Of a stretch of DNA of 54,731 nt, positions 1,089-46,071 are shown piece after piece. Below the pieces are notes generated by a model. It searched no databases, was not told the origin of the DNA, and was given only the letters and a program-made list of their open reading frames with translations. The DNA comes from Bacteroidales bacterium (lineage in GTDB: Bacteria; Bacteroidota; Bacteroidia; Bacteroidales; P3). The translations under genes were made by a program, and so were the position numbers. Each line of letters begins with the position of its first letter. Position 1 is the stretch's first letter. The stretch is taken from positions 1-54,731 of the forward strand of contig JAFWBF010000155.1 of NCBI GenBank assembly GCA_017507285.1, in the 5' to 3' direction.

Positions 1089-1188
1089 GAGTAAACGACT
1101 GATTGAAATTTATATCACGACTGAAATTTGTCTACATCACGCAGTAGTTGCGTCTAGATCAGGAGAAAAATTTATCTACATCACGATG
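1089..1188 (-). repeat. 22-bp phased tandem array, core TACATCACG (CGTGATGTA on the minus strand)
   Basis: Units start at 1111 (tatatcacgact), 1133 (tacatcacgcag), 1155 (tagatcaggaga, degenerate) and 1177 (tacatcacgatg), with a weak unit at 1089. Spacing is exactly 22 bp. Confidence 0.8.
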
Positions 1189-1507
1189 TATTTTTTAGGT
1201 TGTATATTGTCCAAAAATTGATGGTATACCATTATGCTCGTAATACCCTACTGCAAAACAATTGACAATAGGGTATAAATATGCATGTATAACTACTACA
1301 GAACTTTTGCAAAATCAATATTCTGTAAATCAGGTTTTAGAAGTTGCTTATTTTGTTTTTCATTTGACTGTTGTTGTTTTTATGCTTTGTGAATAAGTTA
1401 AAAATGACGTCAAATTGCTGTTGTAGCCACTCAATTGTTATACACTACTAAGCATTGTTGTTGGAATATTAATGATATTGCTCTTTGTATATATGCCGAA
1501 AAAGATG

Positions 1508-1515
1508 TATATTTG
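1508..1515 (+). promoter_or_regulatory. Bacteroidetes-type -7 promoter box (TAnnTTTG) upstream of ychF
   Basis: TATATTTG lies about 50 bp upstream of the ychF ATG. Confidence 0.5.
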
Positions 1516-1562
1516 CAGTGTTATACGATAGTTGAATAATATATTATAGATAGCATAAAATC

Positions 1563-2663
1563 ATGGGATTACAATGTGGAATAGTAGGACTTCCCAATGT
1601 AGGAAAGTCAACATTATTTAATTGTTTAAGCAATGCAAAGGCACAAGCTGCCAATTTTCCGTTTTGCACAATAGAACCCAATGTTGGGGTTATTACCGTT
1701 CCGGACGAACGGTTAAACAAACTTGTAGAGATAGAAAATCCTCAAAGCGTGGTGCCTGCTACTGTGGAAATTGTGGATATAGCCGGTCTGGTACGTGGCG
1801 CCAGTAAGGGTGAGGGATTGGGTAATAAATTTTTGTCCAATATTCGTGAGACGGATGCAATTATTCATGTGCTTCGTTGTTTCGAGGACGACAATATTAC
1901 CCATGTTGATGGTAATGTGAACCCTGTTCGTGATAAGGAAACAATTGATACCGAGTTGCAAATAAAAGACCTTGAAACTATAGAAAACCGTTATGCCAAA
2001 GAGGAGAAAAAAGCCAAAACTAATGGCGATCAAAAGGCCAAAAAATTGGTTGAGGTGATGACTCTTTATCGCGAAGCATTGTTGAAAGGCAAATCGGCTC
2101 GTACGGTGGAACTCGACGATAGCCAATTGGAGGCTGCAAAAGATTTGATGTTGCTTACTGCTAAACCTATATTATATGTATGTAACGTTGATGAGAGTGC
2201 TGTAGTGAAAGGTAATAAATATGTTGATGCTGTGCGCGAGGCTATAAAGGATGAGAATGCCGAACTTCTTGTGATAGGTGCCGGTATAGAGGCCGATATT
2301 GCCGAGTTGGAGTCTTTTGAAGAGAAACAGATGTTTTTGGAGGATCTTGGATTGGAAGAATCGGGTGTGAACCGTCTTATAAAAGCTGCCTATAAATTGC
2401 TGGATTTGCAAACATTTCTTACAGCCGGACCCAAAGAGGTGCGTGCTTGGACTTTCCGCAAAGGTATGAAAGCTCCGCAAACAGCCGGTATCATACATAG
2501 TGACTTCGAAAAAGGATTTATTCGTGCCGAGGTAATAAAATATGAAGACTATGTATCCCTTGGTTCAGAAGCTAAATGTAAGGAGATGGGTAAGATGAGT
2601 GTGGAAGGAAAAGAATATGTGGTGCAAGATGGTGATATTATGCATTTCCGTTTCAATGTGTAA
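1563..2663 (+). CDS. ychF: ribosome-binding ATPase YchF (Obg-family GTPase/ATPase)
   Basis: The N-terminus [20 protein letters not shown] carries the G1 P-loop. The 366-aa length and the C-terminal TGS-like end ([17 protein letters not shown]) are typical of YchF. Confidence 0.95.
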
Positions 2664-2683
2664 CTAACTAAAGGTTGCTGAGC

Positions 2684-4711
2684 ATGATTTTTAAAATAGA
2701 GGCCGATTATAAACCTATGGGCGACCAACCCGAAGCTATACGTCAGTTGGTGGAAGGTGTAAGAAATAACCAAAAGGGACAAGTGTTGCTGGGTGTAACA
2801 GGCTCGGGCAAAACCTTTACGGTGGCTAATGTGATTGCTCAGCTAAATAAGCCTACCCTAGTGCTTAGCCACAATAAAACTTTGGCGGCACAACTTTATG
2901 GCGAGTTTAAGCAGTTTTTTCCTCACAATGCTGTGGAGTATTTCGTATCGTACTACGACTACTACCAGCCGGAGGCTTTTATTCCATCAACCAACACCTA
3001 TATTGAGAAGGATTTGCAAATCAACGACGAGTTGGAGAAGTTGAGGATACGTGCCAGTTCTGCTCTACTATCGGGTAGGAGAGATGTAATAGTAGTATGT
3101 TCGGTATCGTGTATCTATGGTATAGGTAATCCTGAGGAGTTTAAGAACGGAACTATTTATCTGAAGGTTGGAGATAAGATGAACCGAGATGTATTTCTGC
3201 TAAACCTTGTAGATTCGTTGTATACACGAAACGAGATAGACTTTATTAATGGGCGTTTTAGGGTTAAGGGTGATACCGTTGATGTTTTTCCATCGTATGC
3301 TGATTTTTGCTATCGTATATCCTTTTGGGATGATGAGATAGATGGTTTGCAGTCGTTTGATCCACTTACCGGAAGAACTATCGACATCATGGATGAGATT
3401 GTTATATACCCTGCCGGTAATTTTCTTACATCCAAAGAACGGCTCAAAGAAGCCCTATTCGGTATCGAAAATGATATGTTTGAGCGTAGGGATATGTTTA
3501 TAAATGAAGGTAGACTACTTGAGGCTAAGAGGTTGGAAGAGAGAGTAAATTACGATTTGGAGATGATACGTGAGGTGGGGTATTGCAGTGGTATAGAAAA
3601 TTATTCCCGTTATTTTGATGGGCGTAAGGAAGGGTCTAGACCATTCTGCCTTATCGACTATTTTCCCGACGATTTCCTGATGGTTATTGATGAGAGCCAT
3701 GTAACAATACCTCAGATACATGCCATGTATGGTGGTGATAGAAGCCGTAAGATGAACCTGGTGGAGTATGGTTTCCGACTGCCATCGGCGTTGGACAATA
3801 GGCCACTTACTTTTGACGAGTTTTATAACCTAAGTAACCAAACAATATATATAAGTGCCACACCTGCCGATTATGAGTTGCATGAAAGTGAAGGGGTTGT
3901 GGTAGAGCAGGTGATACGTCCTACCGGCTTGCTAGATCCGGTGGTGGAAGTTCGTCCAGCAACATCGCAAGTTGATGACTTGTTGGACGAGATAGAAGAT
4001 GTGGTGTCTTCCGGTGAGAGAGTGTTGGTGACAACCCTTACCAAGCGTATGGCAGAGGAGTTTACCAAATATCTTGGTAACTTAGGAATACGTTCCAAAT
4101 ACATACATTCAGACGTTGATACATTGGAACGTGTTGAGATTATGCGAGATTTGCGTATGGGGGTGTTTGATGTGTTAGTGGGCGTTAATTTGCTAAGGGA
4201 GGGCTTGGATTTGCCTGAGGTGAGTTTGGTGGCTGTGCTTGATGCTGATAAAGAAGGTTTTCTTCGAAATGATAGGGCATTGATACAGACTATAGGGCGT
4301 GCTGCTCGTAACGTGCACGGTAGGGCTATACTATATGCCGACAAGATAACGGCATCTATGCAGAGAGCTATGGACGAAACCAATCGTCATCGTGAGAAAC
4401 AAATACGTTACAATCAAGAACATGGTATGGTACCTCGACAAATAGTGAAATCAACCGAGGCAATATTGGGACAAACATCGGTGATAGACCTTGCAGCAGA
4501 GCAGAGTGCCGAATATTATGTTGCTTCTTCTGCTACTGTTTTCCAAAAAACGGAAGAAGAAAAAGTCTATCGTAGCAAAGACGAGATAAAGAAAGCCCTT
4601 AATGCTGCTCACCGTAATATGCAAAAGGCTGCCAAGGAGTTGGATTATATGGCTGCTGCCAAATATCGTGACGAGGTGAAATATTTGCAACAGTTGCTAG
4701 AGAATAGATAA
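2684..4711 (+). CDS. uvrB: excinuclease ABC subunit B
   Basis: Contains GDQPEAI, the Walker A motif GVTGSGKT, the YYDYYQPEA motif, helicase motifs and a C-terminal UVR domain (AAKYRDEV). The ATG at 2684 is preferred over the TTG at 2675 used by the ORF track. Confidence 0.95.
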   Translation: MIFKIEADYKPMGDQPEAIRQLVEGVRNNQKGQVLLGVTGSGKTFTVANVIAQLNKPTLVLSHNKTLAAQLYGEFKQFFPHNAVEYFVSYYDYYQPEAFIPSTNTYIEKDLQINDELEKLRIRASSALLSGRRDVIVVCSVSCIYGIGNPEEFKNGTIYLKVGDKMNRDVFLLNLVDSLYTRNEIDFINGRFRVKGDTVDVFPSYADFCYRISFWDDEIDGLQSFDPLTGRTIDIMDEIVIYPAGNFLTSKERLKEALFGIENDMFERRDMFINEGRLLEAKRLEERVNYDLEMIREVGYCSGIENYSRYFDGRKEGSRPFCLIDYFPDDFLMVIDESHVTIPQIHAMYGGDRSRKMNLVEYGFRLPSALDNRPLTFDEFYNLSNQTIYISATPADYELHESEGVVVEQVIRPTGLLDPVVEVRPATSQVDDLLDEIEDVVSSGERVLVTTLTKRMAEEFTKYLGNLGIRSKYIHSDVDTLERVEIMRDLRMGVFDVLVGVNLLREGLDLPEVSLVAVLDADKEGFLRNDRALIQTIGRAARNVHGRAILYADKITASMQRAMDETNRHREKQIRYNQEHGMVPRQIVKSTEAILGQTSVIDLAAEQSAEYYVASSATVFQKTEEEKVYRSKDEIKKALNAAHRNMQKAAKELDYMAAAKYRDEVKYLQQLLENR

Positions 4712-4752
4712 ATTGGATATACAAATATAATGATATGAGAGGATAGCTTGAT

Positions 4753-5745: not shown

Positions 5746-5815
5746 ATTATAAATTGGTTGAACTCTACGCTATAAATTATGGGCTATAAATCTTTGCATA
5801 TTTAAATAAAAGTTG

Positions 5816-5823
5816 TATCTTTG
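5816..5823 (+). promoter_or_regulatory. -7 promoter box (TAnnTTTG)
   Basis: TATCTTTG lies about 70 bp upstream of the ATG at 5892. Confidence 0.45.
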
Positions 5824-5891
5824 CAAGATATACTTAAACATTGTTATATATATAAGTGCCTGAATTATAAAAAACAAAAACATTTACAAAT

Positions 5892-6407
5892 ATGAAGAAA
5901 CACATTTTATTTATTGCTATGGCAATATCGTTTATGGGACTTTTTGCCCAAGTAAGAATACCGGATGGTAACTTTTCGTTCGAATTGCCCAAAGGATGGA
6001 AATATCTTTCGACCAATAAGGTTGATAATAGAACTAAAGTGTACTTATATTCGGCTCAAGAACTTGTGTCTGCACAAGGTGATACCACGTTGCCTTTCTT
6101 GAGAATATATGTGCGTACAGCCACCAAAAATAAAACGGCTATGGAATTGAGTATAGATCGCTTTATGGAACAACCATTCCAAACCATGGAGGAATATACA
6201 TCTGGATTATATCTTCCTACTCGTGATGCAATAGCATATTTGGGAGCAAATCGTGACGAGGTAGATGGAACCGAAAATCAGTTCTATATACTTTATTTTA
6301 TGCATAAGAATACAGCAATAGAATTTCGATTACAAACAACAAAAGAAACATTTGAACAAGTAAAGAACGAATTCGAAACTATATTAAAGTCTATAGTTGC
6401 CTACTAA
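5892..6407 (+). CDS. hypothetical secreted protein
   Basis: 171-aa ORF with the signal peptide MKKHILFIAMAISFMGLFAQ. No recognisable motifs. Confidence 0.6.
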   Translation: MKKHILFIAMAISFMGLFAQVRIPDGNFSFELPKGWKYLSTNKVDNRTKVYLYSAQELVSAQGDTTLPFLRIYVRTATKNKTAMELSIDRFMEQPFQTMEEYTSGLYLPTRDAIAYLGANRDEVDGTENQFYILYFMHKNTAIEFRLQTTKETFEQVKNEFETILKSIVAY

Positions 6408-6444
6408 TAACTGGATTAGAAACTGGATAGTTGTTCTTGTTTAT

Positions 6445-6478
6445 TATGCGAAGTTGAAAAACTTCGCATAAATTTTTT
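6445..6478 (+). terminator. Rho-independent terminator
   Basis: Stem tatgcgaagtt / acttcgcata with loop gaaaa, followed by a T-run at 6473-6478. Confidence 0.75.
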
Positions 6479-6592
6479 GTGTGCATATATCAGTTTATAT
6501 GTTGGCTGTTATTTTTATGTCTTTCTATGAAACATTGGCTGATATTTTACGTACAATGCTTGAAATACTATATTTATACGAGAGAAAATGAT

Positions 6593-9556: not shown

Positions 9557-9593
9557 TCGCTTGGATTATTGTAATATATAACATATTTACGCT

Positions 9594-11758: not shown

Positions 11759-11904
11759 TTCTGTTTTTCTGTTTCATGCCATATAACTGAAACATCTTTT
11801 TTTTATTGTATTCATAAGTTATATAACTTTGCATATTGTGTATTATCTAAATATGTCGACAGGACTTTATCTCACAAATACACATACCTATAGGTTTAAA
11901 AATG

Positions 11905-11970
11905 CCTCGTGATGTAGTTGTATTTTCCTCGTGATGTAAATCAATCTTCCTCGTGATGCAGATAAAAGTG
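11905..11970 (+). repeat. three 22-bp tandem units with core CCTCGTGATGYA
   Basis: cctcgtgatgta at 11905 and 11927, and cctcgtgatgca at 11949. Spacing is exactly 22 bp. The array lies 45-110 bp upstream of the recA -7 box. Confidence 0.9.
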
Positions 11971-14899: not shown

Positions 14900-17071
14900 A
14901 TGAATATAAAAGTAAAATTTCTTGCATTGGCGTTGAGTATGCTAATGCTTGTACCAGCATCGGTTAAGGCCGACGAAGGTATGTGGTTATTGTCGTTGAT
15001 AGGTAAAAACTACGACGATATGAAACAAAAAGGTTTCAAACTTACAGCCGACGATATTTATAATATCAACCAAAGCTGTATCAAAGACGCTATAGTGGGA
15101 TTGGGCAACGCCGGCTCGCCTTTCTGGCATTTCTGTACTGCCGAAATTGTGTCGGACAAGGGATTGCTTACCACCAACCACCACTGCGGTTATGGTCAGA
15201 TTCAAGAACACTCCACTGTAGAGCACGACTATCTTCGCGATGGCTTTTGGGCTTATACTATGGAAGAAGAGCTTCCCAATCCAGGCCTTACAGCTTCGAT
15301 ACTTGTACGTGTGGACGACGTTACCAAAGAAGTCCTCGCCGCCCTTAACGACGATATGACAGAAGCAGAACGAAACAAAGCTATTGCCGACGTATCGAAA
15401 AAAATATCCGACAAGGCTAAAGAAGGTACTAACTACGAAGCCACTGTAAAAAGCATGTTCAACGGAAACCAATTCTTCTTGTTTGTGCACAATATTTACA
15501 AGGACGTTCGTTTGGTAGGTGCTCCTCCTTCATCGATGGGTAAGTTCGGTGGCGATACCGACAACTGGATGTGGCCTCGCCATACTGCCGACTTCTCGAT
15601 GTTTCGTATCTACACTGCTCCTGACGGCTCGCCGGCCGAATACTCCAAGGACAATGTGCCTTTGAAACCTAAACATCACCTGCCTATCAACATTAAAGGT
15701 GTGGAAGAAAACGACTTTGCCATGATTATGGGTTTCCCCGGTACTACAAACCGTTTTGTAACTTCCTATGGCCTTGAAGAAGTGATGGACATCACCAACA
15801 AGCTACGCTACGAAATACGTACTCAAAAGATTAACGTATGGAAGGCAGCTATGAACGCCGACCAAGCTGTAAAGATTAAATACGCCTCCAAATATGCCAG
15901 CTGCTCAAACTATTGGAAATACTCCAACGAACAAAACAAGGCTCTTAAGGCTTTGAATACCATCGGCGTAAAGCAAGATATAGAACGCCGCTACAACGAA
16001 TGGGCTAAAGGTAAAGATGCTAAATATCAAAACGTACTATCGGAAATAGAAAAGATGGTAACAGCTCGCAAACCCTATATGGCTGCACGCACCTACTTGG
16101 CAGAAGGTTTGCTTAGTGGTCCTGAATTGCCGATGATGGCTTTTGGCATATATAACATGTTGTCGCAAGCCGATGAACAAACATCGGTTCAAGACAAACA
16201 AGCTATATTGGACGAAATAATGAAAGAAGTAAAAACTTTCTACAAAGATTACGACCAAACACTTGAAGAAAAGACTATTGCCACAATGTTTGAATACGTT
16301 TACAAAAACATTGAGCCTGAATATTGCCCCGAATTCCTTGCCGAAATAAACAAGAAATACAAAGGCAACTTTGAAAAATATGCTGCCGACGCTATGAAAA
16401 AATCGGTCTTCGCCAACGAAGAAACTTTTACTAAATTCATGGAAAAACCCAACTTGAAAAAGCTTGCCAAAGACCCTATGGTGGTAGCCGGTTTGGGTGC
16501 TTATGTTGAATATGTGGCTGTGGCTAAAAAAGTTAAAAATGCTGCTCCTGATATGGACAGAATGCAACGCTTGTTTGTTTATGGCTTGTTGGATATGAAC
16601 GGCAATAAACCTATCGCTCCTGATGCAAACAGCACTATCCGTTGTACTTACGGCAACTGCTTGGCCTACGAACCAAGAGATGGTGTGTATTACAGCTACT
16701 ATACTACTTTGGACGGTGTAATGGAAAAAGAAGACCCGATGAATCCCGAATTTATAGTTCCCGCCAAATTGAAAGAACTTTGGGCTGCAAAGGATTACGG
16801 TCGCTATGCCAACAAGAAGGGCGAACTGCCTACTTGTTTTATTACCAACAACGACATTACAGGCGGCAACAGCGGTAGCCCCGTTATGAATGCCGAAGGT
16901 CATTTGATAGGCTTGGCTTTCGATGGAAACAGCGAAGCCATGAGTGGCGACATTGATTTTGAAGAAAATATGCAACGTTGCATCAACCTCGACGTGCGTT
17001 ATATGCTTTTCATAATCGACAAGTTTGCAGGTGCTAAGAATCTTATCAACGAAATGACGATAATAGAATAG
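14900..17071 (+). CDS. S46-family dipeptidyl-peptidase (DPP7/DPP11 type)
   Basis: Signal peptide followed by DEGMW. Catalytic His in TNHHCG and Ser in GGNSGSPV. The 723-aa length is typical of the family. Confidence 0.9.
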   Translation: MNIKVKFLALALSMLMLVPASVKADEGMWLLSLIGKNYDDMKQKGFKLTADDIYNINQSCIKDAIVGLGNAGSPFWHFCTAEIVSDKGLLTTNHHCGYGQIQEHSTVEHDYLRDGFWAYTMEEELPNPGLTASILVRVDDVTKEVLAALNDDMTEAERNKAIADVSKKISDKAKEGTNYEATVKSMFNGNQFFLFVHNIYKDVRLVGAPPSSMGKFGGDTDNWMWPRHTADFSMFRIYTAPDGSPAEYSKDNVPLKPKHHLPINIKGVEENDFAMIMGFPGTTNRFVTSYGLEEVMDITNKLRYEIRTQKINVWKAAMNADQAVKIKYASKYASCSNYWKYSNEQNKALKALNTIGVKQDIERRYNEWAKGKDAKYQNVLSEIEKMVTARKPYMAARTYLAEGLLSGPELPMMAFGIYNMLSQADEQTSVQDKQAILDEIMKEVKTFYKDYDQTLEEKTIATMFEYVYKNIEPEYCPEFLAEINKKYKGNFEKYAADAMKKSVFANEETFTKFMEKPNLKKLAKDPMVVAGLGAYVEYVAVAKKVKNAAPDMDRMQRLFVYGLLDMNGNKPIAPDANSTIRCTYGNCLAYEPRDGVYYSYYTTLDGVMEKEDPMNPEFIVPAKLKELWAAKDYGRYANKKGELPTCFITNNDITGGNSGSPVMNAEGHLIGLAFDGNSEAMSGDIDFEENMQRCINLDVRYMLFIIDKFAGAKNLINEMTIIE

Positions 17072-17092: not shown

Positions 17093-17289
17093 AGGCAATT
17101 TCTAAAAATTGCTTTGCAGGTGATTTGCGGAATTTTCTTAGGAAAATTTCTACTTTCTTTTGATTGAGCATAGCGGGCTATGCGATTGAGAAAGAAATAG
17201 AAAGATTTCAAGAAAAAATGCAAAGCACGCAAAAGTTTCAAAGAACGTCCTTCTATCATTCCGAAACGTGGAATTTTTAGAAGTTGCCT
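17093..17289 (+). mobile_element. MITE-like element, copy A (short form)
   Basis: Terminal inverted repeats AGGCAATTTCTAAAAATT ... AATTTTTAGAAGTTGCCT (one mismatch). By eye it is highly similar to copies at 17820, 20044 and (inverted) 27873. It is flanked by TT/TT. Confidence 0.7.
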
Positions 17290-17535: not shown

Positions 17536-17746
17536 ATAGTATCGAAAGTGCTGAAAGCATAGTATCAAAACAGTTGTATTGATACTATCAAAAGTATTGT
17601 ATATATGGTCTGCAAGTGCCACTTGCGCATCTTACAAGTGGCACTTGCATGATTAGCAAGTGCCACTTACAGACCATGATTTCAGTGGTTTCAATACTAT
17701 TATTTCAGTACTTTTGATACTATACACACAATAGTTTCGATACTAT
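17536..17746. repeat. 211-bp dyad-symmetric composite of nine phased units (3 x ATAGTATC, 3 x CAAGTGSCACTTG, 3 x GATACTAT)
   Basis: Left units are at 17536/17559/17582 (23-bp period). Central palindromes are at 17613/17635/17657 (22-bp period). Right inverted units are at 17693/17716/17739 (23-bp period). ATGGTCTG at 17605 mirrors CAGACCAT at 17670. All of these pairs are symmetric about position 17641. Confidence 0.85.
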
Positions 17747-17819: not shown

Positions 17820-18095
17820 AGGCAATTTCTAAAAATTGCTTTGCAGGTGCTTTGTGAGTTTTTGCCAGAAAGATTTCTACTTTCTTTTGATTGAGCATAG
17901 CGGGCTATGCGATTGAAAAAGAAATAGAAATAGAAAGATTTCGGTAACGTTGCGATTAAGCGAGTAAAGAGCAATGCTTTAGCATTAGCTCTTTCGAGCG
18001 ATAGCAACATCGACGAAGTCAACAACGCAAAGCACGCAAAAGTTTAAAGAATATTCTACTATCATTCCGAAACGTGGAATTTTTAGAAGTTGCCT
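17820..18095 (+). mobile_element. MITE-like element, copy B (long form with internal hairpin module)
   Basis: Same termini as copy A, plus an extra internal segment (gcgattaagcgagtaaagagcaatgctttagcattagctctttcgagcg...). It is flanked by AA/AA. Confidence 0.7.
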
Positions 18096-19948: not shown

Positions 19949-20043
19949 ATTGTTGTACCTCGTTTTTATTTTTTTTGCTGAGAACTTAAACGCAGAAGTT
20001 CGTTTTTTATTGTAAGGTGTGTGATGTTTCTTTAGGCAATTTC

Positions 20044-20301
20044 TAAAAATTACTTTGCAGGTGATTTGTGATTTTTTACTAGAAAGATTTCTACTTTCTT
20101 TTGATTGAGCATAGCGGGCTATGTGATTGAAAAAGAAATAGAAAGATTTCGGTAAAAAACACAAAGTTGCGATTAAGCGAGAAAGAGTAATGTTCACATT
20201 AGCTCTTTCGAGCGTTAGCAACTTCGACGAAGTCAACAACGCAAAAGTTCTTATAGAAGGATAAATACTTGCTCAGAACGTGGAATTTTTAGAAGTTGCC
20301 T
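20044..20301 (+). mobile_element. MITE-like element, copy C
   Basis: Same TIRs as copies A and B. It lies in the divergent xth / HD-phosphohydrolase intergenic region and is flanked by TT/TT. Confidence 0.7.
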
Positions 20302-20370
20302 TTAGTAAAATAGGGCAATAAAGAAGATAATTGTGCGTTATTCAACAATATTCAATAAATTATACATATA

Positions 20371-23469: not shown

Positions 23470-23489
23470 TCGGGAGGGAGATAAATATT

Positions 23490-23577
23490 CCTCTCGACAT
23501 TGTTCGAATTTCCTCGTGATGTTGTTTGGATTTTCTCCCGTCGTTGTTGAAAATCTTCGCAACATAGGTTGTCTACA
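23490..23577 (+). repeat. degenerate member of the CCTCGTGATGT 22-bp array family
   Basis: An intact core cctcgtgatgtt at 23512. Degenerate units (7-8 of 12 matches) are at 23490, 23534 and about 23555. Confidence 0.5.
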
Positions 23578-24205
23578 CTTTTTTATTCAACAATATGTTT
23601 TGAATATTGAGAGATTATTTGTTGTTCTGCAATTCATCGAAACTTCGTTGTATTTTACACTGCGAAAAAAAATCTTTGTATGTATAAAAAATAACTCTCG
23701 AATGAATAAAATTTGTCTTATCTGTAGTTTTTTTTTGCTTGTGCGATTTTTTTTGGATTTTATTCTAACAAAAAAATGTGCATAAGTGGTATTAATCAAA
23801 TTATGCTTGCTTTTATTGTCATATATTGTTGTAATATAAGATGTTTAATGCTTTATATCTTTATTGTGAATGTTTCTATGTTGTTAATTATCAATAGTAT
23901 AGTTTAATGTTTTGATGTATAGATAATTGCAAATACGGCTTGTTTATATGCTTTTGATTATTAGTAATATTTATCGGTTTTGAATAAAAAGAAGGTGAAA
24001 AAGTGAGAAAGTGTAAAAAATATTTTTTTTATTGAAAAAAAAGTATTATATTCCGCCGCTTGAGTGGTAGTTTTTATTATTTGTTTATTTATCAGATTGT
24101 TGTTGCTACTTGGGTAAAAAGAGCTATTAAAAAGGCTGTTTTCAGTACATAAAAAAAATGAATTATGCAAATTTTTTTTCAAACATGCAATTGTTTTTTT
24201 CTTTA

Positions 24206-24213
24206 TAAATTTG
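24206..24213 (+). promoter_or_regulatory. -7 promoter box (TAnnTTTG) upstream of dnaA
   Basis: TAAATTTG lies about 65 bp upstream of the ATG at 24280. Confidence 0.5.
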
Positions 24214-24279
24214 CAAACGAAAATACGAAAAGAAAAATATATCGTAATACATTTAAAATATAGATATTACTATAAAAAA

Positions 24280-27872: not shown

Positions 27873-28222
27873 ACTTTCTGCAATTTCCAAAATTTCATGT
27901 TTTGGAATAATCGAAGAACCTTCTTTGAAACTTTTGCATTGTTGATTTCGTCGATGTTGCTATCGCTCGAAAGTTCTAATGCTGAGGAATTGCTCGTTAT
28001 TCACATAATCTCTACATTGTGTTTTTTTTGCATTGCGAAGTTGCTAAAGCCCGAAATAGTTAATGTAAATATTACTCTATTGCTTGCTTAATCGCAAATT
28101 TGCCGAAATCTTTCTATTTCTTTTTCAATCGCATTGTCCGCTATGCTCAATCAAAAGAAAGTAGAAATCTTTCTAGTAAAATTCCGCAAGTTACTTATTA
28201 AGTCAATTTTTAGAGATTGCCT
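27873..28222 (-). mobile_element. MITE-like element, copy D (inverted, longest, one end degenerate)
   Basis: Reverse complement of copies A-C. The intact end ...caatttttagagattgcct finishes at 28222. The other end is degenerate and starts within a few bp of the hemW stop codon (27868-27870). Confidence 0.65.
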
Positions 28223-28438
28223 AAGTAAACTAACGGCTAAGAGCTGAATCCTAAAGTTGCTTTCTTTAATATCCTAAAACTTGAATTTTCAGAAACTTAT
28301 TGCAACATCGTTTGCAGGCCATTGTCTTTGCATTAAAACAAAATTGCGTTATCGTAAGAAGTATAGTGCCGAAACTGTTATATATATACTACTCTACATA
28401 TTATATATATAGTGTTACACCTGTTATGATATAAATGT

Positions 28439-28504
28439 CCTCACGTCGTGAGGAACATTCTCTCACGTCGTGAGCGGTATCTCCTCACGACGTGAGCAAA
28501 GTAT
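28439..28504. repeat. three 22-bp units with palindromic core CCTCACGWCGTGAG
   Basis: Cores at 28439, 28461 and 28483, with exactly 22-bp spacing. Confidence 0.9.
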
Positions 28505-28517
28505 AAATAAAATATAT

Positions 28518-28573
28518 CGAATACTAATAATATAACTTATGCGATACTATATACAAAACATATCGGACACTAT
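28518..28573 (+). repeat. three phased units with core CGRWACTAT (same GATACTAT core as the right arm of the 17.6-kb element)
   Basis: cgaatacta at 28518, cgatactat at 28542 and cggacactat at 28564 (spacing 24 and 22 bp). Confidence 0.7.
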
Positions 28574-28590
28574 ATGTTTAACGCAAAGGC

Positions 28591-28634
28591 AAAAGTTTTT
28601 TGATGTAAACATAAAAGTTTTTTGATGTAAAGTA
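28591..28634 (+). repeat. two 22-bp tandem units AAAAGTTTTTTGATGTAAA
   Basis: Units at 28591-28612 and 28613-28634 differ only in their last three bases. The TGATGTAAA core resembles the CGTGATGTA family. Confidence 0.85.
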
Positions 28635-28692
28635 AAATCTCTTTAAGTCAACTTATGAATAATGCTTTGAAAGGGAGATGTGTCGTTTGTGG

Positions 28693-28776
28693 GAGACGTA
28701 CCGTTTTTTTTTGATTTTTTGAGACGTGCCGTTCGTAGAGACGCGCCGCGGCACGTCTCTTATTGCGGAACGTCTC
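28693..28776. repeat. GC-rich cluster of five GAGACGYGCC / ACGTCTC motifs (3 direct, 2 inverted) including an 11-bp hairpin
   Basis: gagacgt at 28693 and 28721, gagacgc at 28738, and inverted acgtctc at 28753 and 28770. agagacgcgcc / ggcacgtctct forms a near-perfect palindrome. Confidence 0.75.
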
Positions 28777-33787: not shown

Positions 33788-34927
33788 TTATAGTTTTATG
33801 TATTTCATGAAATTGACACGCCAAGTAAGTCCCATATTAAAGTGAAACTCGTTAGTACCGGCATTCTTTACTGCAAAAAAAGTGTGTAGGCGAACATCTT
33901 TACTATCGTTGATGGGGAAGTATTCGGCTCCTATACCATAGTAGTGATATTCGGTACCGGGGGTTACAAATATGTCCCAATACTCCGATTCAGGTATGTA
34001 TATCGGGTTGCCGTTTGCATCTATGGTTTGTGCTTTGTTTACATCGTAGCCTCCTTTAGCAAAGAGGTTCCATTTCTCGTTCATATTCCATTCCATTTTG
34101 GCTATAACGGAGTAGTCGTCGCCAAAAAAGTGTTCTTGCTTGTCGGTGGCACGGTTCATAATGTCAATATAGCAGTTAAAGTTGTCGAGAACAAGTTTGT
34201 TGCCCAAGGCTATATAGTTTATGTAGCTGCCTCTTTTGTATTCTACCATATTCACCGAGTATATGGTTTTGAAGTGCTCAAAGTTGCCAAACCATATCAG
34301 GTTGTAGGCATAAAGGTTTTCCAACGGACTTGAGGTATAGTTGGAGTTGGCAAATTGTAGGCTGATGTTGTGGTTGCCACTATTGTCGGTATAAGTAGCA
34401 GTAACACCAAATTGGTAGCATGTGATGTTGTTCCAAAAATCGGACCAATAGTACACATCAATAGGAGGAGCGTCGTATTCAAAACCACCTATTTGAAACA
34501 CTTGCTTACCTCCCGATATGGAATAGTTTTTGTTGAACTCGTAGGTAAGATAAATCCAATCAGTGCCATCGAATATCGATTTCATACCGGTGTTGGGTAG
34601 TATACGTTGGCGGAAGTTGTACGAAAACTTATCGGTAATATTGCCGGCCATTGCAATGTTGATATACTTACCCGAAAATCCACCTAGGGTATTTAGAGTA
34701 GTATCCTCGTAAGATTGACAATCGTAGTCGAATCTGCTTTCGAAACGCAGTGTATTTAGGATAGGTTTCGATTCGTTTTGTGCATATACACTTCCCGTAA
34801 GAAATATTGCAATAATAGCATAAAATGCTTTTAATCTGTTTTTTGTGTTCACTTTTGATTGTATTTTATATTCACTAAGTGAGTGCAAAGGTACAACTTT
34901 TTTGTGTAATAAAAGTCGTATTCTCAA
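33788..34927 (-). CDS. outer-membrane beta-barrel porin
   Basis: Signal-like segment AFYAIIAIFLTGSVYAQ, alternating aromatic/polar beta-strand pattern, and a C-terminal WRVNF. The start is uncertain (the ORF track uses TTG at 34927; a GTG near 34852 is also possible). Confidence 0.65.
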   Translation of the reverse strand: MRIRLLLHKKVVPLHSLSEYKIQSKVNTKNRLKAFYAIIAIFLTGSVYAQNESKPILNTLRFESRFDYDCQSYEDTTLNTLGGFSGKYINIAMAGNITDKFSYNFRQRILPNTGMKSIFDGTDWIYLTYEFNKNYSISGGKQVFQIGGFEYDAPPIDVYYWSDFWNNITCYQFGVTATYTDNSGNHNISLQFANSNYTSSPLENLYAYNLIWFGNFEHFKTIYSVNMVEYKRGSYINYIALGNKLVLDNFNCYIDIMNRATDKQEHFFGDDYSVIAKMEWNMNEKWNLFAKGGYDVNKAQTIDANGNPIYIPESEYWDIFVTPGTEYHYYGIGAEYFPINDSKDVRLHTFFAVKNAGTNEFHFNMGLTWRVNFMKYIKL

Positions 34928-36603: not shown

Positions 36604-36691
36604 CATCGCGATGAATTTACAATAACCTCGTGATGTTGATACAGCAACCTCGTGATGTAGCAACAAAATCATCACGAAGGAGTTTTGTTGT
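36604..36691 (+). repeat. four 22-bp units of the CCTCGTGATGT family (outer units degenerate, the last one inverted-like)
   Basis: catcgcgatgaa at 36604, cctcgtgatgtt at 36626, cctcgtgatgta at 36648 and catcacgaagga at 36670. Spacing is exactly 22 bp. Confidence 0.85.
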
Positions 36692-36696
36692 ATATT

Positions 36697-38316: not shown

Positions 38317-38324
38317 CTATCTTT
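38317..38324 (+). promoter_or_regulatory. -7 promoter box (TAnnTTTG) upstream of the T9SS operon
   Basis: TATCTTTG lies about 100 bp upstream of the porP ATG. Confidence 0.5.
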
Positions 38325-38425
38325 GCAAGTTGTATTCACACTGGTTTTTTTGATAAAAATCGGGTCGAATAGAGTTTTATATAAGTGAAAATAAATATAT
38401 TGTAAAGAATAAATACTACTGCATT

Positions 38426-39457: not shown

Positions 39458-39546
39458 AAATGTAACCTTATAAAAAAAATCTCGTTATAGAAGAGACTAT
39501 TTATAGAAAAAGAAACTTATTTATGAATATTAAAATTCTTATCAAT

Positions 39547-40914: not shown

Positions 40915-40988
40915 GAGTTATAGTTCATATTGAAAATAAGTAATTAATATAAATAACATAAACAAAAACAAACAAAAAACATCAAATT

Positions 40989-41948: not shown

Positions 41949-41989
41949 AATTAATCATTGTATTTAACGAATAAATAATAGGATAGAAT

Positions 41990-43672
41990 ATGGGTGCAAC
42001 AAATTGTCCGGAGACGCCCCGGCAGAAGATGATATCGATGATGTATTTGGTGTATTTGGCACTTTTGGCGTTAAATGTGTCAGCTATGCTTTTAAACAGC
42101 TTTATTACTGTATCAGATACAATGGATAAGTCAAACTTAGCTGTAATGGGAAAAGTGGAAGATACTTATACTAAGTTTGCAAATTTTGCGACAACTAACC
42201 CTGAAAAAGCCGGTGATCACTACAAGAAAGCTTTGGAAGTTAAAAGATTATCTGAAGAGTTAAGGGATTACATTGATAGTATAAAGTACGATTTTATAGG
42301 CCAATTAGAGAAAGTAGCGGAGTATCATGATACTGCTACAGGTGAAAAGGTAAAAGAGAATCTTTTGAGAGAAGATGGTGTTGTAGACATTGCTAAGGTT
42401 AAGGGAGTAATAGGTGCTGTAGGTGTTGGTTTTATGAAACAGTTGAGTGCAGATGCGGCTGCTCAAAACCATTTCTTAGGAAGTGGCGAATTTGATCCGT
42501 CTAATGAAGATTTAAGATCCGTTCAAATACGTAAACACATCGAAAAGTACAAAGCAGATGTAAGAGCCCTTTTATCAGGTATTGAAGTCGAATTTCCGGG
42601 ATTGGATGTTGAAGGAGAAAATTTCACTCTTAATGTTCATGGAAAAGCACAAAAAGGAGCGTGGGAACGTCACATATTTGAAAGTAATATTCCGGTTGCA
42701 GACGTTGTATTATTGACTCGTTTGACGACTGATATTATGAATTGTGAGTTTGATTTGGCTAATATGTTATATAAGGCAGTTAATGCTGATGACTTTAAAT
42801 TTGACCAAGTTAGAGCTCGTGTAATACCTAAGGCAACAACAGTTATGCAAGGTGATAACTATGAAGCTGATATATTTGTAGCTGCTTATGATTCTAAAGC
42901 CGACTTGAGAGTGAAAGTAAATGGTAAAGAGATTGTAGGTGATGCTGCAGACAGTGGTAGTGTGCATTGGGTAGTAGGTACCGGTGGATTGGGTGCTCAA
43001 AAGTATTCAGGTGAGATATATGTAAAGAAGGAGAGTGGTGAAGTAGCTTATCCTTTTTCCGGCGAATACTTTGTAACTATGCCAAGTGCTGTAATATCTT
43101 TGACTAATATGAATGTGATATATGCCGGTATTGACAATCCTTTTTCGGTATCTGTACCAGGCGTGAATAGTAAAGATGTTTTTGTAACAGCATCTGCCGG
43201 AACTATTCGTCCAAATCCTGATGATAAGAGCGGTGGCAGTTATTTGATTAATGTAACTAAGGTTGCTCCTATTACAATGACTGTAGAAGCTAATATTGAT
43301 GGAAAGAGAAAGAAAATGGGTGAATTTAAGTATCGTTGCAAGAGTATACCTGCACCAATCTTGAAATTTGGTAAGAACGAAGGTAACTGTTCTATGAAAC
43401 CTGAAGAATTGAAAGCTATAGGTGGTTTTAAGGTAGCAATGAAAGACTTTGAATTTAAAATACCGCCATTGAAAGTAACCTCTTTCTCTTTCAATATGCA
43501 GGGTAGTGGAAAATCGGATGTTCAAATTAGAAATACCGATCGTTTTGATCCGGAAATTAGGAGTATGCTAGATAAGGCGAGAAGAGGTCAGAAAGTTTAT
43601 ATTGATGATGTGAAGGTTAAAACTCCTGATGGAAGAACACATACTTTAAATGCAACGGTAAAGATGTTGTAA
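41990..43672 (+). CDS. gldM: T9SS/gliding protein GldM (PorM)
   Basis: N-terminus TPRQKMISMMYLVYLALLALNVS, the signature GldM TM segment, followed by about 500 aa of periplasmic domains. Confidence 0.92.
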   Translation: MGATNCPETPRQKMISMMYLVYLALLALNVSAMLLNSFITVSDTMDKSNLAVMGKVEDTYTKFANFATTNPEKAGDHYKKALEVKRLSEELRDYIDSIKYDFIGQLEKVAEYHDTATGEKVKENLLREDGVVDIAKVKGVIGAVGVGFMKQLSADAAAQNHFLGSGEFDPSNEDLRSVQIRKHIEKYKADVRALLSGIEVEFPGLDVEGENFTLNVHGKAQKGAWERHIFESNIPVADVVLLTRLTTDIMNCEFDLANMLYKAVNADDFKFDQVRARVIPKATTVMQGDNYEADIFVAAYDSKADLRVKVNGKEIVGDAADSGSVHWVVGTGGLGAQKYSGEIYVKKESGEVAYPFSGEYFVTMPSAVISLTNMNVIYAGIDNPFSVSVPGVNSKDVFVTASAGTIRPNPDDKSGGSYLINVTKVAPITMTVEANIDGKRKKMGEFKYRCKSIPAPILKFGKNEGNCSMKPEELKAIGGFKVAMKDFEFKIPPLKVTSFSFNMQGSGKSDVQIRNTDRFDPEIRSMLDKARRGQKVYIDDVKVKTPDGRTHTLNATVKML

Positions 43673-43722
43673 TTGTGATGAAGTTTAATATAGATCGAAA
43701 GATCTGCTAAAAATAGATTAAG

Positions 43723-44622
43723 ATGAAAAAAATAGCGTTTTGTTTAGGACTATTCATTTTTTCGGCAATGAGTTATTCTGTATTTGCTCAAAATATAGTT
43801 GAGGCCGAAGAGAATGAAAATAATTTTGATGGTTTCTATGAGAAACATTTATCTTCGGAAAAGAGAGCAATTCCGTTTGCTCCGGTTCGTGAGTCGGATA
43901 TAGTTTGGAAAACATGTATTTGGCGTACTATTGATATGCGTGAAAAATTTAATCAATTTTTCTATTTTCCAATACAAACTGAGGCAGAAGGTAATACTCA
44001 ACAACGTAAAAATTTGTTCTATACAATATGGGACGCTTTGGAAAGTGGTCAGATAGAGGCATATGAACCAGATGATGATGAGTTTAAAAAACCTCCACTT
44101 GATTTTGAAGTATTAAAAGCTAAGTATTTTCGTATTGATACTTCAGGTTATACTGATGAAGATGAAGATGGTAATGAAATTTGGGTAGAGACATTTATTG
44201 AGAAAGAGTTGAAATCCGAAGATGTTCATCAAATCTTGTTGAAAGAATATTGGTATATCAATAAGCAAGACACTCGTCAAAATGTTAGAATAGTGGGTTT
44301 GGCATTTAAATATAACGAATGTAAGGATAGAGACGGGGAGTTGGAATGTAATCCTATAACTTTGTTTTGGATTCCTATGAATGATATGAGAGTACGTGAC
44401 GTGTTGGTAAAACAAGATGCTTATGATGAATTTAATCAAGCTTCGCCTCGTTCTTATGATGATATCTTTATCCAACGTTATTTTGAAAGTTTCATTACTC
44501 GCGAAACTAATGATTATAATCGTTCGATATCTGATTATTTAACAGGTCAAGATGCTTTGATTGAATCAGAAAAAATTGCAGAAAGAATATTCAACATCGA
44601 GTTGGATATGTGGGAATATTAA
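43723..44622 (+). CDS. gldN: T9SS/gliding periplasmic ring protein GldN (PorN)
   Basis: Signal peptide plus VRESDIVWKTCIWRTIDMREKFNQFFYFP, the signature GldN region. Confidence 0.9.
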   Translation: MKKIAFCLGLFIFSAMSYSVFAQNIVEAEENENNFDGFYEKHLSSEKRAIPFAPVRESDIVWKTCIWRTIDMREKFNQFFYFPIQTEAEGNTQQRKNLFYTIWDALESGQIEAYEPDDDEFKKPPLDFEVLKAKYFRIDTSGYTDEDEDGNEIWVETFIEKELKSEDVHQILLKEYWYINKQDTRQNVRIVGLAFKYNECKDRDGELECNPITLFWIPMNDMRVRDVLVKQDAYDEFNQASPRSYDDIFIQRYFESFITRETNDYNRSISDYLTGQDALIESEKIAERIFNIELDMWEY

Positions 44623-44641
44623 TTAAACTTTTTCGCTAAAA

Positions 44642-44674
44642 AAACTGCCTTTTTATATTAAAGGCAGTTTTTTT
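44642..44674 (+). terminator. terminator-like hairpin between gldN and its paralog (possible partial terminator/attenuator)
   Basis: Stem aaactgcctt / aaggcagttt with a 9-nt loop, followed by a T-run that runs into the start region of the next gene. Confidence 0.6.
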
Positions 44675-44684
44675 GTGTATATGT

Positions 44685-45548
44685 ATGAGAGTAAAAAGCA
44701 TAAATATATTATTCTTTTGTTTCATTTGTTCAAATTTTGTTTTATCCCAAAATAATTATGGGGTAGGGAAATTTTATGATGATTCTTTTACCAAAGAACG
44801 TAAGGTTTTATCTCGTGAACCGGTGAGAGGTGCTGATGTGATATGGGAAACAAAGATTTGGAGAATGATTGATTTTAGAGAGCGTTTTAATCAATTCTTT
44901 TATTATCCCTTGGAAAAAGAAGGTATCGAGGAGCGAAAAAATCTTGTTTATACTGTGTGGAATGCTATATTGAATGGCGAGATTACGGTATTTGAAGACG
45001 ATGAATTTAAAATACCCATAGATAATGAGTTGTTGAAAAGACGTTATACAAAGATTGATACTCTCTGGTTAGAAATTGAAGATGAGGAAGGAATAACTGA
45101 TTATCAAGCTGTGATTGTGCCAAAAGATTTCAATTCGGAGGATATTTATCAGTTGAAACTAAAGGAAATTTGGTATTTAGATAAGGAAGTTTCAACCATA
45201 TCTGTACAGATAATAGGTATGGCCTTTGTTATGCAAGATATTAGAGTTGATGATGAAGGTGAATACGAATTGCGTGGAAATGTAACCCTGTTTTGGGTTC
45301 CGTTTATGTCGGAGAGTGTTAAGAACTTGTTGGCTAACAATTATGTTTATCGTGATTATAATCTTGCAGTATTACCTTCGTGGGAACAAATATTTTATAC
45401 AAGATACTTTAATAGTTTTATAATACGAGAAGATAATATCCATAATAGGTATATTAACGATTACCTTTTGGGTATGGATGCTTTGAAAGAAGCAGAGCGT
45501 ATTGAAACAACAATTTTTGAAATGGAAATAGATATGTGGGATTATTAA
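44685..45548 (+). CDS. second GldN-family paralog (GldO-like)
   Basis: Same architecture and motifs as gldN (VRGADVIWETKIWRMIDFRERFNQFFYYP; C-terminal EMEIDMWDY versus NIELDMWEY). The ATG at 44685 is preferred over the TTG at 44673. Confidence 0.88.
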   Translation: MRVKSINILFFCFICSNFVLSQNNYGVGKFYDDSFTKERKVLSREPVRGADVIWETKIWRMIDFRERFNQFFYYPLEKEGIEERKNLVYTVWNAILNGEITVFEDDEFKIPIDNELLKRRYTKIDTLWLEIEDEEGITDYQAVIVPKDFNSEDIYQLKLKEIWYLDKEVSTISVQIIGMAFVMQDIRVDDEGEYELRGNVTLFWVPFMSESVKNLLANNYVYRDYNLAVLPSWEQIFYTRYFNSFIIREDNIHNRYINDYLLGMDALKEAERIETTIFEMEIDMWDY

Positions 45549-45867
45549 TTATTTCCGGATAGGGTTTTAGATATCTATTTGAAAGAAATCAATCTTTTTG
45601 TTTTGTAGTTCTTGTTATTAGTGTCCGCTAAAAATCAATCCGATCCATGTTTGATGTTTGTTTTGTCGCACAGCCGATTATATGCTCTGTATAATGGCTT
45701 GTCAAAGATTTAATATTCTTTAGCCTTTGTAACTTAATATGTTGCAAAGGCTGAATCTTGTTTGTCGACCACCAATGATTTCTTTTCGAAAACTTAGTAG
45801 CCGATTAATTTCCTCTTTTCCCCCGCCACAAAACTTCTCTACCCCCACTATAAAACTATTTTCATGA

Positions 45868-45951
45868 CATGAAAATATACTTTCAAGACATGAAAGTATA
45901 CTTTCAAGCTTTGAAAATATACTTTCAAGGCTTGAAAATACTTTTTGAAAC
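45868..45951 (+). repeat. four 21-bp tandem units, each an imperfect palindrome TGAAA-N6-TTTCA
   Basis: Units at 45868, 45889, 45910 and 45931 (catgaaaatatactttcaaga and variants), with a degenerate unit just upstream. Confidence 0.9.
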
Positions 45952-46038
45952 GGGCAAAATATATTTTAGAAACGTCTATAAACAGTTTTTGGAACGTTCA
46001 TAGGCAGTTTGTAGGACGTGTCTTTTGGGGTTGGCTGT
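45951..46038 (+). repeat. four 22-bp phased units ending in GRAACG
   Basis: gaaacg at 45947 and 45969, ggaacg at 45991 and aggacg at 46013. Units 2 and 3 share cagttt. Confidence 0.7.
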
Positions 46039-46071
46039 TGGCTGTTTGCCGTTGGCTATTGGCTGTTTGCC
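46030..46071 (+). repeat. two 21-bp tandem units GTTGGCTNTTGGCTGTTTGCC
   Basis: 46030-46050 and 46051-46071 differ at one base. Confidence 0.9.

Follow-up and report, generated by a model that had tools for sequence, protein, structure and literature searches.

What kind of genetic element recurs, at a spacing of close to two helical turns, between the genes of an uncultured gut Bacteroidales? The question is raised by a 54,731-bp stretch of chromosomal DNA (38.7% G+C; contig JAFWBF010000155.1 of assembly GCA_017507285.1), referred to below in its entirety as the window, whose intergenic gaps hold short tandem arrays of 21-23-bp units, or bricks, each made up of a core and a linker. An initial annotation of the window had described these arrays as one dispersed family shared between seven gaps. 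The arrays prove to be of three classes and not one family. Alignments show at least two composites, element A and element E-F, to be present as homologous copies at unrelated loci; element A, the type with a CGTGATG core, is a genuine dispersed element of about 175 bp. The interpretation that we tentatively favour is that the arrays belong to lineage-specific, non-coding and non-autonomous modular repeat elements, which have been copied between loci and have then gained and lost units locally. Among the contigs used for comparison, L001, L002, L005, L101 and L107 are from strains, L146 is from a sister species, and L147 and L148 are from further relatives.

A two-turn period confined to intergenic DNA

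Every core listed in the initial annotation was found at its position, and the period of 21-23 bp proved to be non-random. Tandem Repeats Finder (TRF) reported arrays with such periods at 1114-1186, 11905-11958, 17559-17602, 17612-17668, 17679-17723, 28375-28433, 28438-28499, 36606-36657, 45860-45940 and 46030-46072, together with one that had been missed at first:

34828-34876, no strand assigned: array of period 23, 2.1 copies (TRF)

Recurrences of 7-mers in intergenic DNA numbered 27 at lag 21, 44 at lag 22 and 14 at lag 23, with 12 and 20 at the harmonic lags of 42 and 44; every other lag between 8 and 41 gave 0-6. The total of 85 for lags 21-23 compares with a mean of 3.2 (standard deviation 2.4, maximum 12) in 300 dinucleotide shuffles. 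No enrichment was seen in intergenic DNA at lags 10-12 or 30-32, so the period does not express a general preference for helical phase; in coding DNA enrichment was found solely at multiples of 3. As had been proposed, all of the arrays lie between genes, with a phasing of two helical turns. The arrays occupy about 1.08 kb out of approximately 8.5 kb of intergenic DNA, or about an eighth. The motif TCGTGATG occurs 11 times against 1.6 expected, the eight array copies being intergenic and the three copies within genes solitary.

When units of all types were compared cyclically, the mean best match was 10.3, against 10.2 for shuffled units, and common ancestry of all core types was rejected on this ground. 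The single family of the initial annotation thus survives for the CGTGATG type, which recurs in four gaps (at 1.1, 11.9, 23.5 and 36.6 kb), and fails for the other cores, which resemble one another no more than shuffled units do. The 21-23-bp period holds while the core spans lengths of 10 to 20 bp (core and linker of 10+12, 15+7, 16+6 and 20+1 bp). Arrays of differing cores abut without spacers, so that the head-to-tail joining described at first is real; the accompanying claim that a phase of about 22 bp is kept across such junctions could not be upheld, phase between differing cores being undefinable. Three of the seven array-bearing gaps in the window are convergent and without a -7 box. 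Brick-array orientation relative to the next gene, 14 against 8, is not significantly biased.

Element A and its copies

The CGTGATG-type arrays in the four gaps were delimited with an nhmmer profile based on an alignment of 19 copies of element A, namely the full copy in the window and 18 others. They are listed here together with a pair of units recognised by inspection of the sequence:

1107-1278, minus strand: full copy of element A (model positions 2-173, E 6e-43), with its hairpin at about 1243-1276, the palindromic box TGATGGTATACCATCA at about 1219-1234 and four 22-bp bricks at about 1105-1190
11889-11967, plus strand: leaderless partial element A (model positions 76-154, E 1e-14), three CCTCGTGATG bricks at exactly 22 bp
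23470-23543, plus strand: degenerate leaderless partial element A (E 4e-5), one intact core at 23512, directly after the rlmN stop codon
36593-36686, plus strand: leaderless partial element A (E 1e-10), three direct bricks and one inverted brick
28591-28634, plus strand: two 22-bp units AAAAGTTTTTTGATGTAAA

The last of these had been taken for a TGATGTAAA variant of the CGTGATG family, an assignment that was given up when the element A profile did not match it. The partial copy at 11889-11967 sits upstream of recA, between TAnnTTTG boxes at 11824 and 12015, and leaderless arrays also occur in convergent gaps, such as that at 36.6 kb. The degenerate copy at 23470-23543 lies at the edge of an AT-rich gap of about 700 bp upstream of dnaA (23560-24279), a candidate oriC. 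A KOPS- or Chi-like polarity was discarded: brick orientation does not switch around dnaA, being minus at 1.1 kb and plus at 11.9, 23.5 and 36.6 kb.

The existence of further copies in relatives, which the initial annotation had anticipated, was borne out for the CGTGATG type by pattern scans and by the profile. A scan of 185,579 species genomes for CCTCGTGATG-N11-13-CCTCGTGATG gave period-22 matches that concentrate in metagenome-assembled genomes (MAGs) of gut Bacteroidales (RGIG9913 from yak, 11 contigs; RGIG7691 from buffalo, nine; RGIG6215 from sheep, three), with further ones in HGM05376, Prevotella merdae and others; the period-21 matches from the same scan in high-GC phyla resemble coding or chance matches. 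Several of the genome matches share about 175 bp with positions 1107-1283 of the window, at 77-80% identity and at unrelated loci. Scanning metagenomes with a pattern for the leader added 16 copies. Bricks adjoin the leader in every one but two, where a MITE (miniature inverted-repeat transposable element) with terminal inverted repeats (TIRs) stands between leader and bricks. At least 20 full copies are present beyond the window, in related MAGs and metagenomes, and over modules of about 175 bp at unrelated loci the mean column identity is 62%, linkers and hairpin leader included.

The full copies adjoin unrelated housekeeping genes, including ychF, dnaK and the gene for an ADP-forming acetyl-CoA synthetase, and no flanking protein family recurs across the 27 array loci from the genome scan. 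At the 12 independent loci of full-length copies with both neighbours known, six gaps are divergent and none is convergent; the upstream neighbour is directed away in 12 of 15 loci, and in co-directional gaps the orientation of the element (2 against 4) has no polarity relative to the genes. Contig L145 bears two composite copies; what they flank are ordinary housekeeping genes, which rules out a composite transposon there.

Element A opens with a 34-nt hairpin, behind which come six 22-bp units in register; the core CMTCRYGAKG is carried by the last four. Across the 19 copies its left end is sharp, (TTT)ATACCCTATTG, and is succeeded by a 14-pair hairpin, the palindromic box TGATGrTATAyCATCA, GATATAC, CCTCAAAAAT and the four bricks; the leader after the hairpin can also be parsed into a further pair of 22-bp units that have diverged. 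Each core, a quasi-palindrome, is joined to a 12-bp A/T-rich linker, and its TGATG half-site also forms an inverted pair in the leader. Each brick keeps an identity specific to its position (u1, CATCGTGATGTAGATGAATTT; u2, CCTCsyGATG...AACT; u3, ACTACGTGATGTAGATAAA; u4, CCTCGnGATGTAAATTT). In the alignment the cores fall at columns 95, 117, 139 and 161, and over all related loci the distance from core to core is 22 bp in 149 cases, 21 bp in 62 and 23 bp in 4. Two gap characters fall in the 86 brick columns (93-178) and 62 in the 55 columns of the leader (38-92), and many linker columns reach a consensus of just 35-60% or so; spacing is therefore far better conserved than sequence.

The hairpin is the sole consensus structure found and is 95.8% paired across the copies. 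It varies by exchanges of UA with UG and of GU with GC, with 47 G-U cells against 4 C-A cells, an excess which implies that it forms well on one strand only. Covariation in a second candidate hairpin was not above that of shuffles, and the brick region is unstructured (fold z -1.3). An internal sigma-ABfr promoter was considered: the leader has a -7 box with one mismatch, which is not conserved and has no -33 element. Neither a conserved TAnnTTTG promoter upstream of the left end nor a terminator after the element was found.

Element E-F and adjoining arrays

A second composite and a small array that abuts it occupy the last of the array-bearing gaps:

45852-46034, plus strand: composite element E-F, about 185 bp, four 21-bp palindromic units CTTGAAAATATACTTTCAAG and then four 22-bp TTTnGRAACG units
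46030-46072, plus strand: two 21-bp units GTTGGCTNTTGGCTGTTTGCC of 7-bp GTTGGCT subrepeats (TRF periods 7 and 21)

Element E-F, for which TRF gives 3.9 copies at 86% match, is situated upstream of the TAACTTTG box at 46172. The sister species has a homologue of it, at a locus that is not orthologous (L146, 2232-2414, E 2e-12), which identifies it as a second dispersed composite, and here the head-to-tail joining of cores is part of the design of the element. No difference in its arrays was seen among the strain contigs that span them, and the ends of several short-read contigs fall within the array. A reading of the GRAACG array as a site for an ECF sigma factor was dropped upon inspection, the spacer from GAAAC to CGTC being 21 nt and not 16-17.

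Between the TAACTTTG box and the start of the S8 peptidase gene runs a leader of about 500 nt (46180-46686); within it are an extended inverted repeat, at about 46330-46500, and another -7 box, at 46582. In two species GC-rich palindromes of the form GAGACGYGCCG...CGGCRCGTCTC adjoin brick arrays (window, 28686-28776; L146, 2088-2120, 2394-2415 and 2492-2520). Like the ends of IS5-type elements they open with GAGAC, and GGACGTGTC or GAGACGTCTC closes element E-F; the palindromes might be remnants of element ends, or terminators.

Tripartite palindromes

The runs of cores near 17.5 kb and 28.4 kb had been listed separately. The cores are as described, and each cluster turns out to be one large imperfect palindrome in three parts:

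17536-17746, no strand assigned: tripartite long palindrome of 211 bp; three 23-bp ATAGTATC units, three 22-bp palindromic CAAGTGSCACTTG units and three 23-bp inverted GATACTAT units
28362-28581, no strand assigned: second, weaker tripartite palindrome; 23-bp AT-rich array at 28375-28433, three 22-bp palindromic CCTCACGWCGTGAG units at 28438-28499 and an inverted CGRAYACTAWA array at 28518-28585

The inverted 105-nt arms of the first are 71% complementary and separated by 1 nt, with an RNA fold of -85.4 kcal/mol (z -9.4). In the second, 28362-28411 pairs with 28502-28551 and 28401-28428 with 28554-28581; its reverse-strand self match has E 2e-14 and its fold z -5.5. A third, at 6129-6349 of strain contig L002, has 107-nt arms that are 76% complementary (z -12.4) and is built of 2.7 copies of a 23-bp unit, 3.6 copies of a 22-bp palindromic unit and 2.8 copies of a 23-bp unit; it lies in different DNA that fills the gap after the S46 peptidase gene. 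The three have in common a size of 211-221 nt and the 3/3/3 architecture, and share no sequence save an arm motif resembling ATAGT(AT)CG. Both of those in the window sit between convergent genes. Beside the palindrome in L002 is an array of 44-bp period (5931-6121, 3.8 copies), each period consisting of two 22-bp half-units, of which L001 has one unit more than L002 and L005.

Gain, loss and conservation of units

Variation in unit number, which the initial annotation had put forward as a check, was found both between strains and between species. In strain L101 the 23-bp array at 28375-28433 is shorter by 47 bp, the length of two units, and in another gap the number of whole units is not the same in L001, L002 and L005. 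Upstream of recA there are three units in all nine strains with contigs covering the gap, and four in the orthologous gaps of RGIG9913 (87% DNA identity) and HGM05376 (83%). The three shared units match unit by unit across species, linkers included; the block from array through promoter is conserved, and the DNA upstream of that block is not. The gap downstream of dus compares as follows:

Window: 183 bp, three direct bricks and one inverted brick
L146 (Dus identity 95%): 163 bp, ordinary terminator hairpin at the same place, no bricks
L147 and L148 (Dus identity 88-89%): 73-76 bp, single bidirectional terminator, no bricks

From this comparison the array was either gained in the lineage of the window or lost repeatedly elsewhere. 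Its terminal inverted brick pair occupies the position expected of the terminator: where the sister species has its ordinary dus terminator, this pair forms a hairpin with a T-rich tail behind it. Species whose YchF is 96% identical have, in the ychF gap, a version that is rearranged and strongly diverged, with CATCGGGAGG units. One period-22 array was present in 104 kb from four relatives (90-96% YchF identity) that were chosen regardless of repeats, and in 167 kb of brick-bearing MAG loci period 22 accounts for 30 of 73 TRF rows, about ten of these with unrelated cores. A long gap by the cdd gene of L146 (9052-9333) holds dense, microsatellite-like arrays with periods of 16, 24, 40 and 48 bp (ACGGAATNACGGATTA) and of 9 and 45 bp (CTCTACTTT), so that array-rich intergenic DNA in this clade is not confined to 22-bp periods.

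Comparison with known repeats

As the initial annotation had suggested, the nearest described repeat is BrickBuilt of Porphyromonas gingivalis (Klein et al. 2015; PMC4596501), which has one unit, AGACCATAGTATCCTCTCATATG, in up to 22.8 copies, IS5-like TIRs GAGACCTTTGCA, a leader of up to 285 nt and a tail of up to 318 nt. BrickBuilt and the window arrays are both found in Bacteroidales as strictly intergenic, spacer-free tandem units of 22-23 nt, and in both a non-repetitive leader stands beside the array and unit number varies between strains; the window arrays differ in having 2-8 units, many unrelated cores and no TIRs. The arrays are nevertheless not members of BrickBuilt. Its 23-nt unit AGAYCATARTATCCTCTCRTRTG gave no match at up to three mismatches, and its TIR (GAGACCTTTGCA / TGCAAAGGTCTC) gave five matches at up to two mismatches against 3.3 expected, a chance level, with none flanking an array. 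A 9-mer, CATAGTATC, is common to the BrickBuilt unit and the 23-bp ATAGTATC units at 17536 and 17559 (chance p about 0.1), and together with the 23-bp period this may be regarded as suggestive. A search of the literature on 22-bp repeats or MITEs in Prevotella and Bacteroidetes brought up just the BrickBuilt papers.

A classical MITE was likewise rejected for element A, which has no TIR and no definable target-site duplication; a TIR and a target-site duplication are both seen in a MITE family resident in the same DNA. That family measures about 200-280 bp, has the 18-bp TIR AGGCAAyTTCTAAAAATT, and is represented at 17093-17289, 17820-18095, 20027-20310 and, in reverse orientation, 27929-28229, as well as at about 2650-2850 in L005. 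It is polymorphic between strains, L005 having an insertion of about 199 bp upstream of recA with a TAAA duplication, and copies occur in several related MAGs; in L131 and L135 one is inserted within element A.

Among the better-known palindromic repeats, REPINs are long hairpins of two inverted halves, REP, BIME and REPIN elements are mobilised by RAYT (Y1/HUH) transposases, whose genes typically have REPs on either side, and ERIC or IRU elements are 127-bp palindromes. The window elements are like REP, REPIN and ERIC sequences in being short, multicopy, intergenic palindromes with strand-specific hairpins that tolerate G-T pairs, and they resemble REP and ERIC in their frequent location in 3' untranslated regions (UTRs) or between convergent genes; the tripartite palindromes of about 215 nt recall REPINs as long hairpins of two inverted halves. 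The hairpin of element A is conserved and multicopy and forms on one strand, as is the case for REP and REPIN. REP families differ, however, in having one sequence each and no 22-bp tandem units, whereas the tripartite palindromes share architecture and not sequence, and no RAYT (Y1 transposase) recurs beside the 27 array loci or occurs among the window proteins scanned. The arrays are not classical REPs, nor are they terminators, sigma-70 boxes or CRISPR, in agreement with the initial annotation; CRISPR, in which repeats of 23-50 bp alternate with unique spacers of comparable length near cas genes, was dismissed on account of cores of 10-20 bp with semi-conserved linkers of 1-12 bp and of the lack of any Cas family among the window proteins scanned.

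BOX elements of Streptococcus pneumoniae have the form boxA-boxB(n)-boxC, in which boxB is about 45 bp and not helically phased, and show terminal inverted similarity. The window elements are likewise modular, non-autonomous, intergenic and gene-free, with a central module repeated variably between fixed ones, but they lack the terminal inverted similarity, belong to a different phylum and have no sequence relation to BOX. In geometry the bricks are comparable to phased binding arrays, which include plasmid iterons of about 22 bp, LytTR direct repeats of 9-10 bp with 12-13 bp between them, and type II centromeres bound by ParR: all have a two-turn period, a short core with a free linker, and a strict register. 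Such arrays adjoin a cognate gene or promoter and number one to few per replicon, whereas bricks number dozens, in unrelated contexts and with no cognate gene. Set against LytTR-type operators, in which two such repeats stand directly upstream of the promoter that is regulated, the bricks have 10+12 bp in 2-8 units, with a -7 box 44-81 nt away in five cases read by eye, and some stand in convergent gaps. Readings as iterons or as transposon ends were rejected, since no rep or transposase genes were seen among the window proteins scanned and none recurs by the 27 array loci; the analogy to Tn7 and Mu ends in the initial annotation is likewise without support. BLAST against plasmids and phages gave no real matches, and viral contigs gave just two period-21 matches, which are chance-like. 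Rfam, FopS and GibS included, gave no match at the gathering threshold and, at E<=1, two chance matches (mir-3747 and SSRC38).

Genomic setting

The genes of the window include ychF, uvrB, recA, rlmN, dnaA, dus and those for an S46 and an M16 peptidase, together with the type IX secretion system (T9SS) genes porP and gldK-N and genes for large T9SS cargo proteins. The encoded proteins are also found in ruminant and other animal gut assemblies and in the NCBI MAG GCA_045542255.1, and the ruminant samples XIEF21 and LIUQ22 contain the species of the window; for YchF the nearest named homologues, at just 82-83% identity, are from Odoribacter, Gabonibacter, Culturomica and Marinifilaceae. No transcription-factor, transposase, Cas or Rep family was matched among the window proteins scanned. 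The C-terminus of the S46 peptidase differs in the window strain, and an exact look-up of the protein gave no match.

Strain-level rearrangement breakpoints lie at 17071/17072 and at about 46180. From the stop codon of the S46 peptidase gene onward L001, L002 and L005 have wholly different DNA, with mazG downstream, and L107 diverges just past the TAACTTTG box at 46172, into a different downstream gene. An ARAGORN call of tRNA-Leu(aag) at 46818-46892, within the 1390-aa open reading frame (ORF) of the S8 peptidase, is probably a false positive. Within a 1280-aa T9SS cargo ORF (Por_Secre_tail), 53601-54331 holds 4.8 tandem copies of a 153-bp (51-codon) unit; this repeat is coding and bears no relation to the bricks.

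Origin and possible function of the arrays

If the arrays are indeed non-autonomous modular elements, the composites would have entered intergenic DNA as copies made in trans by some enzyme, and the arrays would then have expanded, contracted and decayed in place through slipped-strand mispairing or unequal recombination. A few may have been co-opted, as upstream of recA and as the terminator hairpin of dus. The two-turn period at any core length, together with the near-absence of indels in element A, makes it most likely that the brick unit is a spacing-constrained recognition module, which would align consecutive binding sites of a dimeric protein along one side of the helix; cooperative protein binding would fit this geometry, with its fixed 22-bp spacing and almost no indels in 19 diverged copies. 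The asymmetry of the hairpin, where changes are almost only to G-T or G-U on one strand, suggests that a single-stranded form, whether RNA or single-stranded DNA, would be recognised as well.

Several observations weigh against this interpretation. No second copy of any tripartite palindrome was found in about 1 Mb of related DNA, so that mobility, in their case, is conjectural. Conservation of the recA array equals that of the adjoining promoter, which would also fit a purely regulatory site. A clean pair of filled and empty sites with exact boundaries was not found, the dus gaps being too diverged, and array expansion is patchy, its density being specific to lineages. The hairpin of element A shows no double compensatory changes and no covariation above shuffles, and across the 19 copies the left end has no inverted partner at the right end and no target-site duplication could be defined. 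Neither a partner protein nor a mobilising enzyme was found among the window proteins or the neighbours of the 27 array loci. Finally, no reading explains why unrelated sequences share one period.

It might be supposed that the elements act as RNA. Element A would then be a small RNA or cis-RNA present in many copies, whose tail of CGUGAUG repeats, unstructured behind a 5' hairpin, could serve as a protein sponge or multi-seed region. The tripartite palindromes, like the arrays of palindromic units, would form long hairpins in 3' UTRs and would there terminate transcription in both directions or stabilise mRNA, a role that REP and ERIC elements also have. The near-complete pairing of the hairpin, with changes that preserve it on one strand only, is in keeping with this proposal, as are the folds of the tripartite palindromes (far above shuffles in all three), the convergent genes around both of those in the window, and the hairpin and T-rich tail with which the dus array ends at the terminator site of its relative. 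Multicopy small RNA families have precedent in Bacteroides, for example FopS (PMC11697453). Yet no Rfam match beyond chance emerged even at E<=1, compensatory double changes are lacking, the brick part is unstructured, and element A has neither a conserved upstream TAnnTTTG promoter nor a terminator after it. Full-length copies show no orientation bias in co-directional gaps, and RNA hairpins have no need of a fixed 22-nt register when core length varies; on balance we think this account rather unlikely. That the arrays are cis-regulatory operators which evolved in place, each core type being bound by a transcription factor of its own, one that recognises direct or palindromic repeats two turns apart, we judge unlikely. 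Operators of this geometry are familiar (LytTR, a 9-10-bp repeat with a 12-13-bp spacer; AraC, 17+4; SARP, 11/22), and a 10-bp core with a 12-bp A/T linker at exactly 22 bp would suit such a role, as would the conservation of the recA array with its promoter in three species, 57 nt upstream of a TAAATTTG box, the avoidance of convergent gaps by full-length element A (none of 12) with its upstream neighbour so often directed away, and the position of element E-F upstream of the TAACTTTG box. Whole modules of about 175 bp with 62% column identity at unrelated loci, however, point to copying and not to the convergent evolution of sites; three of the seven array-bearing gaps in the window are convergent and without a -7 box, array orientation is not significantly biased, no regulator gene was seen among the window proteins scanned, and the ychF-gap element is poorly conserved at 96% YchF identity.

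Strain polymorphism in unit number, unit families unrelated in sequence, weak conservation in the ychF gap and sharply different array densities between close lineages would all be expected of neutral minisatellites, that is, slippage duplications whose period is kept by unequal crossing-over, without recognition or function. Slippage predicts broad periods, however, whereas at least ten unrelated sequences here share a period of 21-23 bp and neither 10-12 nor 30-32 is in excess, and it leaves unexplained the copying of composites to new loci, the three 3/3/3 palindromes of about 211-220 nt and the near-absence of brick indels, so that we consider a neutral origin quite unlikely. Very unlikely, in our view, is a derivation from transposon ends, whether as solo or fused ends of Tn7 or Mu type with multiple 22-bp transposase sites or as true BrickBuilt or IS5-derived MITEs. 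Four contiguous 22-bp sites are reminiscent of the right end of Tn7, the BrickBuilt unit shares the 9-mer CATAGTATC with the units at 17536 and 17559, and a real TIR-MITE is active in the same strains; but no TIRs flank the arrays, no transposase gene recurs by the 27 array loci and none was seen among the window proteins scanned, the BrickBuilt unit is absent with its TIR at chance level and a p of about 0.1 for the shared 9-mer, and viral contigs, phages and plasmids gave no real matches. One may also speculate, as an idea that we hold to be improbable, that some Bacteroidales possess a dedicated system which writes or reads DNA (or RNA) in steps of 22-23 nt. A sequence-tolerant protein or copying enzyme with a two-turn ruler would then make and maintain brick arrays from unrelated sequences and build the 3/3/3 palindromes of about 215 nt, possible precursors of phased duplexes of about 22 nt; the 22-, 23- and 41-nt repeats of BrickBuilt would be another output of it.

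Significance

Intergenic repeats are well described in Proteobacteria and Firmicutes (REP, ERIC, BOX and Correia elements) and barely so in Bacteroidales, a dominant gut order. A fixed two-turn period over unrelated sequences would imply that the spacing is either read by some protein or written by some mechanism, slippage alone being insufficient. Brick arrays break short-read assemblies, which affects the quality of MAGs, and they could serve as variable-number tandem repeat markers for strain typing. Lying as they do beside the promoters or terminators of recA, ychF, dnaK, dus and a T9SS operon, these elements may shape gene expression and strain-level variation in this group of gut bacteria.

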